IMG/VR virus record: IMGVR_UViG_2737471838_000005
Reading direction: 5' to 3' (one strand)
DNA: 18,295 nt
DNA from: a virus
Taxonomy: Duplodnaviria > Heunggongvirae > Uroviricota > Caudoviricetes
The position numbers and the translations under genes were made by a program. Numbering within the stretch: the first letter of the stretch is position 1; each line of letters starts with the position of its first letter. The notes below the pieces were generated by a model. That model made no database searches and had not been told where the DNA came from. It saw only the letters and a list, made by a program, of their open reading frames with translations. Positions 9,624 through 10,953 of the stretch are shown piece after piece.

Positions 9624-10673
9624 TTACGCCAGTACGCCAATTGCCAGCGCGCGATCGATAAAACGAAATATCAGCTCCAGTTGGGAGCCATACTTATCTT
9701 CAAATGCCACTGTATCCGTATGCAGCTCGTTGTGATGCTTTCTGCACAAAGGCAACACAAAGAGATCATGTGCTTTTGTTCCCATTCCGCCCTGCCCGTG
9801 ACCAATCAGATGATGCGGATCGTCGGCTGGCATACCGCAGCAAGCACACGGCTGTGTCTTAACCCAACGTGTGTATTTCTCCTTAACCCAGCGGCGACGT
9901 TTAGGCAGCTTCATGAAAGATTCCGGAGACTCTGGATCAACGGTGATGCTTACCACCGTCTTTTCCTGTGGTGATTTTTGTTGCTGGTGGGCGTAAGGCA
10001 ACGGTGCAAGATTTTTTGTGCGTTGTTTCAATATGCTGGTGGCGGTCTGCTCTCCCGGTACGATGTCGCTTTCGCGGTACACCGAGCAGATTTTTTCCGC
10101 TGGTAATCCCAGCGAACGACGCGATACAGCCTCAGGTAGTGCATCCACCACCTGATTGCAGACCGTCCACCAGGATAATTCAGCCAAAGATAATTCCCGC
10201 TCCTGCGTACCGCTTATTGCGTGACGGATGACGTCAATCACCCATGCTGTCAGATTTTGTTGAGCAAGCAGCTCCAGTGATTCCGATGTCTGGTCACGCA
10301 GTTGGTTGTCGCAGTGCCAGCACAACACCATTGCGCCGGTACCATAACGGTGAATGACTGTTTCAGTGTGATGGTAATCGCCATTAGGCCACTGGCAGGA
10401 TGTAACATGACGTAATAGCCAGTCGGACAATGCGCCAACGCCGCCAGCAGCACGAATCACCCGTTCGTTACTAAAAAACGGCAGCAATGTTTTGTCTTCC
10501 GCCAGCGGCTGGCGAACGGCAGGAACGACTCCGGATGGCAGATTACGCATGCTTTTTGGTTCCGGTTCCACCAGCACTCGAGGATTATGAAATATCTGTA
10601 TGGATTCACGGCCCGGCTTAAGGACCACCAGCCCAAGCTCAGGCACCAGAACAGGTCTAAGTAATACCCGCAC
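9624..10673 (-). CDS. ydfU: DUF968-type prophage protein with C-terminal HNH-like motif, 349 aa
   Basis: C-terminal CACCGMPADDPHHLIGHGQGGMGTKAHDLFVLPLCRKHHNELH resembles an HNH nuclease zinc finger. GTG start at 10673 preceded by GGAGGT at 4-nt spacing. The first ATG at 10550 would give 308 aa. Confidence 0.65.
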   Translation of the reverse strand: MRVLLRPVLVPELGLVVLKPGRESIQIFHNPRVLVEPEPKSMRNLPSGVVPAVRQPLAEDKTLLPFFSNERVIRAAGGVGALSDWLLRHVTSCQWPNGDYHHTETVIHRYGTGAMVLCWHCDNQLRDQTSESLELLAQQNLTAWVIDVIRHAISGTQERELSLAELSWWTVCNQVVDALPEAVSRRSLGLPAEKICSVYRESDIVPGEQTATSILKQRTKNLAPLPYAHQQQKSPQEKTVVSITVDPESPESFMKLPKRRRWVKEKYTRWVKTQPCACCGMPADDPHHLIGHGQGGMGTKAHDLFVLPLCRKHHNELHTDTVAFEDKYGSQLELIFRFIDRALAIGVLA

Positions 10674-10674
10674 G

Positions 10675-10953
10675 TTACCTCCAGATCCGTTGCTGGAAAG
10701 TGCGGGACGCACGTGGTGGGCGTTCGGAATAAGGCAGCCTGACAGAGATTATCCAGTGCCGATAGTCGAGACTGAGAGCTTTCTTAACCTCGAACCCGCG
10801 CCTGCGGTAAGAATGAATCAGCCATTCGGCCTGTTCTGCAGTGCATGGAGGGTGCTGGAACCATTCAGACTTGAATGCGTGAGAATACCGCCCGTGCGTG
10901 CAGGCAAGAACGGGCGAATTATCAGAATTGTAATATTTTGCGTTGCGTGCCAT
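10675..10953 (-). CDS. Hypothetical prophage protein, 92 aa
   Basis: ORF MARNAKYYNSDNSPVLACTHGRYSHAFKSEW... with GGAGAA 5 nt upstream of ATG 10953. Stop is 1 nt from the ydfU start. Family not recognised. Confidence 0.5.
   Translation of the reverse strand: MARNAKYYNSDNSPVLACTHGRYSHAFKSEWFQHPPCTAEQAEWLIHSYRRRGFEVKKALSLDYRHWIISVRLPYSERPPRASRTFQQRIWR

Follow-up and report, generated by a model that had tools for sequence, protein, structure and literature searches.

YdfU, a DUF968 protein of Escherichia coli prophages, has a place in the literature already. The classification of His-Me finger proteins by Jablonska et al. 2017 (PMC5714182) names it in group 7, together with YbcO of prophage DLP12 (PF07102 "Putative nuclease YbcO," formerly DUF1364; PDB 3g27), for which a nuclease role is likewise predicted in the literature. 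That YdfU is a predicted His-Me nuclease, encoded next to Q, has therefore been known since 2017, and databases label it so; recognizing its HNH domain here changes nothing, since the prediction is published. YbcO shares the genomic slot of YdfU, after a gene of the 92-amino-acid (92-aa) open reading frame (ORF) family and before RusA and Q. The two differ in architecture: YbcO is a single domain of 96 aa, whereas YdfU has in addition an N-terminal domain of 190 aa and a linker of 70 aa, and the helix motif is H-x3-H in YdfU but H-D-x2-D in YbcO.

Three other kinds of protein bear on the comparison. Lambda Rap/NinG (PF05766), a branch-specific recombination endonuclease, belongs to the same superfamily but to a different family (His-Me group 24), and like YdfU it occupies the slot between a 92-aa ORF family gene and Q. 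The activity of NinG has been shown experimentally, whereas that of YdfU is a prediction. PdcB of phage P1 is a full-length YdfU homolog (26% identity over residues 32-348; DUF968 E = 4e-50) and, like YdfU, is encoded immediately 5' of a late-gene activator, which in P1 is Lpa. Unlike ydfU, however, pdcB follows the phd-doc addiction module rather than lying in a nin region, and the upstream pdcA is unrelated to the 92-aa ORF. Finally, the "Orf-HNH" proteins of Gram-positive phages (HNHc_6, DUF968) and P1 Ref (RecA_dep_nuc) have a C-terminal HNH zinc-finger core in common with YdfU, and a recombination role has been proposed for them.

The DNA considered here (18,295 nucleotides in all, hereafter the window) comes from an E. 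coli Qin-type prophage, and the ydfU locus would represent the last genes of a lambdoid early ("nin") operon, immediately before the late-gene antiterminator Q (Table 1). In Escherichia-type loci the gene order is rem, 92-aa ORF, ydfU, with rem directly 5' of the small ORF wherever enough upstream sequence is available. The initial annotation described ydfU and an abutting 92-aa ORF, and both are present as described, on the minus strand and separated by the single base 10674. It also took a GTG (10673-10671) as the ydfU start. We find this start to be correct: RefSeq/PGAP places it there, all distant YdfU homologs start at the corresponding point of the alignment (with MR(V/A)LL or MLVLQ), and a GGAGG ribosome-binding site (10678-10682) lies 4 nt 5' of the codon. 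In addition, the abutting start codon is the start of the longest ORF in 36 of 75 related loci, so an in-frame upstream GTG (10712 in the window) is unusable in those 36.

Table 1. Position and basis of the features of the ydfU locus in the window
Feature	Coordinates	Strand	Description and basis
ydfT, Q-type late antiterminator	8858..9610	-	Pfam Antiterm E = 4e-54, annotation; starts 13 nt past the ydfU stop
ydfU coding sequence	9624..10673	-	349 aa, GTG start, TAA stop (9626-9624); DUF968/His-Me finger protein; ORF list, RefSeq
YdfU C-terminal beta-beta-alpha-metal (HNH) domain, predicted	9627..9887	-	Residues 263-349; AlphaFold2, BFVD, hhalign to YbcO
Cys/His cluster	9720..9848	-	Residues 276-318; putative zinc ligands C276, C279, C310, H313; putative active site H287, H288, K300, D303, H314, H318
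Linker	9888..10103	-	Residues 191-262; low confidence, variable length; pLDDT < 50 for 195-207 and 223-259
YdfU N-terminal domain	10104..10673	-	~190 aa; AlphaFold2 orders residues 1-190; PHROG_11007 matches residues 2-134
Second Cys/His motif	10305..10397	-	Residues 93-123; C93-Q94 ... H101/H102 ... C118-W-H120-C121-D122-N123; predicted beta-hairpin and helix
Putative coupling junction	10671..10683	-	TGG AGG TAA C GTG; ydfU ribosome-binding site GGAGG inside the W91-R92 codons, then stop, one base, start
92-aa ORF (WP_012304870, PHROG_1212)	10675..10953	-	ATG 10953, TAA 10677-10675; ORF list, PGAP; PHROG_1212 E = 1.7e-35
Conserved 66-aa core of the 92-aa ORF	10678..10875	-	Residues 27-92; predicted beta-alpha-beta-beta fold, then basic tail PRxSRTFQQRIWR; dN/dS 0.10
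N-terminal extension of the 92-aa ORF	10876..10953	-	26 codons, Escherichia type only; pLDDT < 50 for residues 1-24; disordered, weakly constrained
Ribosome-binding site of the 92-aa ORF	10960..10964	-	GGAGA, 6 nt 5' of the ATG; sequence
rem	11020..11271	-	Annotation; 5' neighbor of the 92-aa ORF

Is the C-terminal Cys/His cluster of YdfU really that of an HNH nuclease, as was first proposed from the motif at residues 276-318 (PCACCGMPADDPHHLIGHGQGGMGTKAHDLFVLPLCRKHHNELH)? The family match is far beyond chance, with E = 4.7e-76 to Pfam DUF968 and E = 1.1e-170 to PHROG_96, "HNH endonuclease." The cluster also matches HNHc_6 at 26.3 bits (below the Pfam cut-off of 26.6), RecA_dep_nuc at E = 0.004 over residues 268-328, and several PHROGs labeled HNH. 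These profiles place it in His-Me/HNH families only, and in no non-nuclease zinc-finger family, so the original reading is borne out; an NCBIfam profile search gave no informative match. The best PDB sequence match of the C-terminal domain is YbcO 3g27, though it is weak (E = 0.88). An hhalign comparison with YbcO (E = 0.0027, probability 11%) is in register at the catalytic His, the G-x-G-x-K loop, the Asp and the start of the CxxCH helix. Stand-alone DUF968/HNH phage proteins of 100 to 125 aa match the domain in BFVD (E = 6e-5). Searched with Foldseek against the PDB, the whole YdfU model found nothing below E = 1, and the weak matches were mostly HNH proteins. A peptide N-glycanase, the sole phmmer match of YdfU to PDB sequences, we regard as a chance match.

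The predicted structure has the beta-hairpin followed by an alpha-helix that the His-Me finger fold requires: AlphaFold2 places strands at residues 287-290 and 302-307 and a helix at 311-319, with pLDDT of 81-91 except in the 291-300 loop. Across an alignment of 48 homologs (28-89% identity, from E. coli to Vibrio), C276, H287, H288, K300, D303, H314 and H318 are invariant. This includes both His residues at the end of strand 1, where the general base is expected, and the two His residues on the helix, where metal ligands are expected; the conserved YbcO His lines up with H288. Judged by analogy with His-Me nucleases of solved structure, the general base would be H288, and H314 and H318, with D303 nearby, would hold the catalytic divalent metal. 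The middle Asn of the H-N-H signature is not conserved, other clades having R, Q, K or D in place of N315, but this is no bar to membership because that Asn is not universal in the superfamily. The remaining Cys/His residues (C276, C279, C310 and H313) may hold a structural zinc, again by analogy, that some clades dispense with. All four are present in YdfU and the Yersinia clade, whereas the Vibrio clade keeps only C276 and varies at C279, C310 and position 313, so the "zinc finger" is clade specific rather than family defining. From the family, the invariant residues and the predicted fold, we infer nuclease activity for YdfU. In the literature searched we found no enzyme assay of any DUF968, YbcO or 92-aa ORF family protein, and ydfU of K-12 continues to be listed as uncharacterized.

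YdfU would thus have three parts, with the His-Me/HNH domain of the DUF968/YbcO group joined by a disordered linker to an N-terminal domain of about 190 aa. The linker ends in a conserved motif, VDPESPESFM-x-PKRRRW, in which D246, P250, P257 and K258 are conserved. The N-terminal domain also occurs alone, as PHROG_11007; it has no Pfam family and no PDB sequence match, and comparison with NinB/Orf gave no match. It contains a second Cys/His motif in which C93, Q94, C118, W119, H120 and D122 are invariant, and AlphaFold2 predicts strands at residues 105-110 and 113-118 followed by a helix at 119-125. Swaps of candidate ligands are compensated between clades, with HH...CWHC in E. coli and YC...CWHH in Vibrio, and the site probably binds zinc. 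Some long proteins join the YdfU N terminus to tail-fiber, tip-attachment or capsid domains; we treated these as assembly or deletion chimeras.

Gene position gives a further clue to what YdfU may do. It had been suggested that YdfU occupies a slot that in other lambdoid phages holds RusA- or NinG-type enzymes, and the comparison of loci separates the two parts of that suggestion. In sampled loci that are redundant and were chosen via the small ORF, YdfU, NinG and YbcO never co-occur (183 loci), and one of the three follows the 92-aa ORF family in almost all of ~190 loci (>95%); the exceptions are PY54 and two other loci, which have a different gene 3' of the small ORF. NinG and YbcO are therefore interchangeable with YdfU by position, although for NinG/Rap the equivalence is purely positional, YdfU having no Pfam match to PF05766. 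RusA, in contrast, is no alternative to YdfU. It lies directly 3' of YdfU in 24 of the 76 YdfU loci among the 183, adjoins it in mEp390 and BZS1, and lies one gene 5' of it in 2H10; it accompanies YbcO in 10 sampled loci and NinG in none. The presence of RusA beside YdfU argues that the two proteins have different jobs. Because YdfU fills the NinG/Rap or YbcO slot, it is most likely a non-essential endonuclease that processes DNA structures, a substrate that we infer purely from gene position; P1 pdcB and lambda ninG are both dispensable. YdfU would help phage recombination or replication, and would work alongside the RusA Holliday-junction resolvase rather than replace it. Lambdoid phages thus seem to take one of two options, NinG by itself or else YbcO or YdfU, the latter two often accompanied by RusA, a choice that hints at how the processing of recombination intermediates is split among these enzymes.

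The small ORF of 92 aa is a genuine gene and is conserved. Its family comprises 129 protein clusters with 586 viral-contig matches, its dN/dS is 0.19 overall and 0.10 in the core, and the core is modeled with confidence (AlphaFold2 pLDDT of ~83 over residues 31-70). The homologs in Gifsy-1/2, mEp237, PY54 and phiES15 consist of the core alone. The N-terminal extension, for which dN/dS is ~2 on few substitutions, is missing from other clades; ATG 10953 is nevertheless the only start of the E. coli ORF, as there is no in-frame internal start codon. The product would be small, with a beta-alpha-beta-beta fold and a basic tail, and a Foldseek search with its model returned nothing below E = 0.4, only the generic beta-alpha-beta-beta fold.

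The initial annotation also proposed that the two genes are co-translated, and the layout of the junction favors this. The one-nucleotide spacer alone does not single out the pair, because tight spacing is general in nin regions. However, ydfU has its ribosome-binding site in the last two sense codons of the small ORF, whose stop is separated from the GTG by 1 nt, so that translation of ydfU is probably coupled to that of the 92-aa ORF. The same arrangement (TGG GGN/AGG, stop, 1-2 nt, ATG/GTG) is kept in 181 of the 184 92-aa ORF family loci that retain downstream sequence, in all clades and whichever nuclease comes next. The junction thus has the features of a coupled pair: stop and start a few nucleotides apart, the ribosome-binding site within the upstream ORF, and conservation in homologs.

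It is tempting to go one step further and regard the two proteins as a two-component system, as was first suggested. As an obligate pairing, this is not supported. The YdfU-family genes of 2H10, mEp390, BZS1, Vibrio phage Her and P1 (PdcB) have no such small gene 5' of them, so that the co-occurrence runs one way: the small ORF predicts a His-Me nuclease in >95% of loci, but YdfU does not predict the small ORF in these five phages. Furthermore, the small ORF also precedes NinG and YbcO, and small-protein alleles that are identical or 95% identical are joined to NinG in locus L175 and to YbcO in loci L176 and L174. The small ORF is a positionally fixed nin-region gene, 5' of whichever His-Me nuclease is present, and not a dedicated YdfU subunit. 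In all, we consider it fairly probable that the locus encodes a His-Me nuclease in the NinG/YbcO slot, translated in concert with a real small gene that is not its dedicated subunit.

Other explanations assign the small protein a closer role. In the first, every nin-region His-Me nuclease (YdfU, YbcO and NinG) would have it as a generic partner, perhaps as loader, specificity factor or active-site inhibitor, and it would recognize features common to these nucleases or their DNA substrate. This would account for the gene 3' being one of three different His-Me families in >95% of loci while the gene 5' varies (Rem, DUF1367, a NinB-like gene or an RdgC-like gene), for the conservation of the junction whatever nuclease follows, and for the strong purifying selection on the core and the conserved basic C-terminal tail with its invariant Trp. 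However, no interaction is needed to explain the adjacency, for which the conserved gene order of mosaic lambdoid genomes is enough, and the invariant Trp-Gly/Arg codons may be kept as a ribosome-binding site. Many YdfU genes have no small gene, as we also take to be true of lambda NinG and DLP12 YbcO; the 3' gene is a different one in PY54 and two other loci; and the small protein has no fold match to a known inhibitor or DNA-binding domain. We therefore think a generic partner rather unlikely. Were the interaction real, a small protein family that appears, from the layout of the genes, to be translationally hooked to whichever nuclease is present could provide a handle on this group of phage nucleases.

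A broader reading, which we consider unlikely, combines such a shared partner of YdfU, YbcO and NinG (the PHROG_1212 protein) with a view of YdfU as a tandem of two treble-clef modules. The small protein would be a regulator, loader or inhibitor delivered via the conserved translational-coupling junction. The N-terminal module of YdfU would be an inactivated copy, forming a built-in pseudo-dimer that nicks rather than cuts both strands. The N-terminal Cys/His motif does have the ligand spacing of YbcO (C-x8-C ... C-x2-C/H) and lacks a catalytic His, and hhalign gives a weak local match between it and the first YbcO zinc knuckle (E = 0.0059). That match, however, spans 19 columns, the domain has no PDB or Pfam match, and hhalign of the N-terminal against the C-terminal domain gave no match (probability 0.1%), so we keep a second His-Me finger as a hint only.

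The strict form of the two-component idea, in which coupled translation fixes the ratio of the 92-aa protein to YdfU and the two make an obligate nuclease, or the small protein serves YdfU as its dedicated regulator or immunity protein, is quite unlikely. The conserved stop-1 nt-start junction with its internal ribosome-binding site would suit it, as would the position of YdfU directly 3' of the 92-aa ORF in every Escherichia-type locus with downstream sequence and a natural in-frame fusion of the small ORF and YdfU in one assembly (P0002). Against it, other genes lie 5' of YdfU in the five phages named above, of the 186 phage records that have a YdfU homolog no more than 59 can contain the small ORF family, and both the association of small-protein homologs with NinG or YbcO instead and the near-identical alleles joined to different nucleases are contrary to an obligate pair. 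Nor does P1 supply a disguised partner: we considered PdcA (66 aa, 5' of pdcB) as a small-protein homolog and rejected it, as its sequence is unrelated. PADLOC profiles of known anti-phage defense systems matched none of YdfU, the 92-aa protein and Rem.

Two further explanations concern YdfU itself. That it is a functional replacement for the Holliday-junction resolvases RusA or RuvC is very improbable. Its position in the nin region adjoining Q would fit, and in BFVD it has a weak structural match to endonuclease VII proteins. T4 endonuclease VII and Rap are His-Me enzymes that cut junctions. But RusA is itself encoded beside YdfU in the many loci described above, and YdfU has neither sequence similarity nor a Pfam match to RusA (PF05866), with which it is not mutually exclusive. 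We hold it to be just as improbable that YdfU is not a nuclease but a regulatory or DNA-binding protein whose Cys/His cluster forms a non-catalytic zinc finger. The annotation of one family member reads "phage transcriptional regulator," the gene always adjoins a late regulator (Q or Lpa) and the middle Asn varies, but the catalytic-type His, Lys and Asp stay invariant while, of the four zinc ligands, the Vibrio clade loses three; for a purely structural zinc finger one would predict the reverse.

The locus also bears on a familiar genome. Other E. coli strains have the 92-aa ORF annotated, as hypothetical protein WP_012304870, and K-12 MG1655 has no annotation of it. E. coli K-12 carries, between ydfU and rem, at NC_000913.3 1644306-1644584 on the complementary strand, an intact and strongly constrained gene of 92 codons that is missing from its reference annotation.

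The window corresponds to Qin, a cryptic lambdoid prophage, and it matches many E. coli chromosomes at 100% identity across the tested 1.9 kb. The minus strand reads relB, relE, hokD, rem, a 92-codon open reading frame (ORF), ydfU, and ydfT, followed by cold-shock and lysis genes. The initial annotation described the junction accurately: the 92-codon ORF terminates in TGG AGG TAA, and after a single base comes the GTG of ydfU. This GTG is the correct start. It has been adopted by PGAP and the K-12 reference, YdfU homologs, even the Vibrio ones, begin at the aligned residue, GGAGG lies 4 nt upstream, and the abutting start codon opens the longest ORF in 36 of 75 related loci. 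An alternative in-frame GTG at 10712 (minus strand), 13 codons upstream, is the source of the old 362-aa YdfU model quoted in the phage P1 record; this longer version shares 38 nt with the small ORF.

Genes at and around the small ORF/ydfU junction, in window coordinates
Feature	Position	Strand	Basis
rem	11020-11271	-	annotation, gene order
92-codon ORF	10675-10953	-	ORF list
ydfU	9624-10673	-	ORF list
ydfT, Q-type antiterminator	8858-9610	-	annotation

The reading of the C-terminal Cys/His cluster of YdfU as a predicted HNH nuclease domain is correct, yet this HNH/His-Me assignment was already known. Residues 160 to 346 match Pfam DUF968 (E = 4.7e-76), PHROG_96 (“HNH endonuclease”) covers the protein over its full length (E = 1.1e-170), and residues 268 to 328 have sub-threshold matches to RecA_dep_nuc and HNHc_6 (for the latter, 26.3 bits versus a cut-off of 26.6). 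DUF968 and DUF1364 constitute His-Me finger group 7, in which Qin YdfU and DLP12 YbcO (PDB 3g27) were named, the neighbors RusA and Q were pointed out, and a NinG-like role in recombination or repair was put forward (Jablonska et al. 2017, PMC5714182). The HNH zinc-finger C terminus of DUF968 proteins had been described earlier (Curtis et al. 2014), and a nuclease function was predicted for YbcO (Kaur and Subramanian 2016).

The predicted structure of YdfU (mean pLDDT 73) consists of an ordered domain (residues 1 to 190), a low-confidence stretch of varying length (residues 195 to 259) with a conserved VDPESPESFM-x-PKRRRW motif at its end, and a beta-beta-alpha unit (residues 263 to 349; strands 287 to 290 and 302 to 307, helix 311 to 319). 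Across 48 aligned homologs with 28 to 89% identity, from Escherichia, Yersinia, Vibrio, Photobacterium, and others, the invariant C-domain residues are C276, H287, H288, K300, D303, H314, and H318, while the putative zinc ligands C279, C310, and H313 are missing in the Vibrio clade, where the sequence is PCVITG ... PLHTDEH. Because the His, Lys, and Asp residues are invariant while three ligands are dispensed with, this pattern argues for catalysis over a purely structural zinc finger; these residues define the family, and the “zinc finger” would be a clade-specific brace. Solved structures are linked to the C-domain weakly but consistently: searched against PDB sequences, its profile ranks YbcO first (E = 0.88), hhalign places it in register with a YbcO alignment (E = 0.0027), and the YdfU model matches stand-alone phage DUF968/HNH proteins of 100 to 125 aa in BFVD (E = 6e-5). 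A Foldseek search of the whole model against PDB gave no significant match.

A second conserved motif, C93-Q94, H101/H102, and C118-W-H120-C121-D122-N123, lies in the N-domain on a predicted hairpin and helix. Its ligand swaps compensate across clades (HH...CWHC in E. coli versus YC...CWHH in Vibrio), its ligands are spaced as in YbcO, and hhalign aligns it with the first knuckle of YbcO over 19 columns (E = 0.0059). The N-domain resembles neither the C-domain nor any entry of Pfam or PDB, and there is only a hint that the motif is a degenerate second treble clef.

YdfU of the window differs from K-12 YdfU by T170 for A (window 10170, minus strand) and Q222 for L (window 10005, minus strand), both outside the conserved motifs. 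Among database variants, P0001, P0007, and P0096 have internal tandem duplications of 44 to 190 residues that take in the linker and portions of the domains on either side; these duplications may be assembly artifacts or real events in a repeat-prone region. In P0385, P0428, P0429, P0494, and P0412, the first 115 to 272 YdfU residues, depending on the protein, are joined to tail-fiber, tip-attachment, or capsid domains. Such proteins are probably chimeras in decaying prophages, formed by deletion or by assembly.

Which slot, then, does YdfU fill? We classified the neighbor genes in about 190 loci around small-ORF homologs from IMG/VR and GenBank phages. In loci of the Escherichia 92-aa type the small ORF is followed by YdfU. 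Gifsy-type loci have NinG at this place, and the phiES15 type has a YbcO homolog and then RusA; most mEp237-type loci follow the Gifsy pattern and some the phiES15 one. PY54 and loci L173 and L196 depart from this scheme. In the 183 classified loci, which are redundant and were picked via the small ORF, so that counts describe a pattern and not statistics, we found NinG alone (93), YdfU alone (52), YdfU with RusA (24), YbcO with RusA (10), YbcO alone (3), and RusA alone (1), and never two or more of NinG, YdfU, and YbcO together. Among the sampled IMG/VR loci (L007 to L197), RusA accompanies YbcO or YdfU in 34 of the 89 that have either nuclease, and none combines NinG with RusA. RusA also adjoins YdfU homologs directly in mEp390 and BZS1 and lies one gene upstream in 2H10. 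Since the three nucleases are mutually exclusive and RusA and YdfU share loci, YdfU is the positional equivalent of NinG and YbcO and accompanies RusA without taking its place. The proposed RusA/NinG slot thus holds for NinG, and extends to YbcO, but not for RusA. The occurrence of NinG without RusA, and of YbcO or YdfU often with it, further suggests that NinG alone covers jobs otherwise split between RusA and YbcO or YdfU.

The 92-aa ORF belongs to PHROG_1212, and its family comprises 129 clusters in a large protein database, 59 GenBank phage records, and at least 586 IMG/VR matches. An identical (100%), intact copy lies in E. coli K-12 MG1655 (NC_000913.3 1644306-1644584, complementary strand; 3807-4085 of our locus L202), where nothing is annotated between ydfU and rem in the reference; in other strains, PGAP includes it. 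The ORF has GGAGA 6 nt before its ATG (10953) and no internal start codon. In other clades the protein is about 66 aa, and only residues 27 to 92 are shared. This core is under strong purifying selection (dN/dS 0.10 in 30 alleles; reading-frame controls 1.6 to 1.8). The model shows the 26-codon N-terminal extension as disordered, and it is unconstrained, with a ratio of about 2 based on few changes. The modeled core is beta-alpha-beta-beta (pLDDT about 83) and lacks significant structural neighbors, and the protein has no match in Pfam, NCBIfam, or PADLOC. P1 PdcA, a candidate homolog, proved unrelated.

In all clades, the small gene ends in TGG-GGN or TGG-AGG, then the stop, 1 to 2 nt, and the start codon of the nuclease gene, ATG or GTG. 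Given this conserved layout, the purine-rich last codons double as the ribosome-binding site of the nuclease gene. The junction has the classic arrangement for termination-reinitiation coupling, and co-translation, as initially suggested, is plausible on this basis. We favor the reading that the small protein is a fixed nin-region gene whose 3' end serves as both module boundary and ribosome-binding site. Alternatively, the small protein may serve whichever His-Me nuclease occupies the slot. In loci L174, L175, and L176 (at about 3500-3710), alleles of the small protein, identical between L175 and L176 and 95% identical between L174 and L175, precede NinG in one phage and YbcO in another. Similarity collapses exactly at the stop/start junction, from 94% identity in the gene to 53% downstream, so the junction has the look of a boundary of mosaic recombination. 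A dedicated two-component function with YdfU, as first proposed, is not supported, because the same alleles join different nucleases and because other genes lie upstream of the YdfU homologs in 2H10, mEp390, BZS1, Vibrio phage Her, and P1.

The analysis shows the family, predicted fold, conserved residues, and synteny of YdfU, and we infer its activity and substrate. The most likely role of YdfU is that of an accessory, metal-dependent DNA endonuclease produced at the end of the delayed-early transcript, with H288 as the putative general base, H314 and H318 as the putative metal site, and an N-terminal domain that may recognize substrate or partner. Its substrates would be intermediates of recombination or replication, which it would process alongside RusA. 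The full-length P1 homolog PdcB (L201 2905-3948, the P1 locus) is encoded immediately ahead of lpa, the gene of the late-promoter activator, an arrangement that parallels YdfU next to Q in lambdoid phages. Two relatives, P1 pdcB, which is reported as non-essential, and lambda ninG, are dispensable for plaque formation.

The Q protein encoded by ydfT combines its antiterminator domain with a DnaJ-type CXXCXGXG zinc-finger stretch (residues 158 to 203; Pfam E = 1.5e-8, above the cut-off). A terminator-like hairpin follows hokD (11402-11419, minus strand) and a promoter-like site lies upstream of rem (11350-11379, minus strand), so rem, the small ORF, ydfU, and ydfT may have their own promoter in the decayed prophage. 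A truncated transposase of the ISEsa1 family lies at the right of the window (about 13800-16900; L001, 13414-16461) together with two pseudogenes that carry frameshifts, one of them a SAM-dependent methyltransferase; this fits a decayed prophage.
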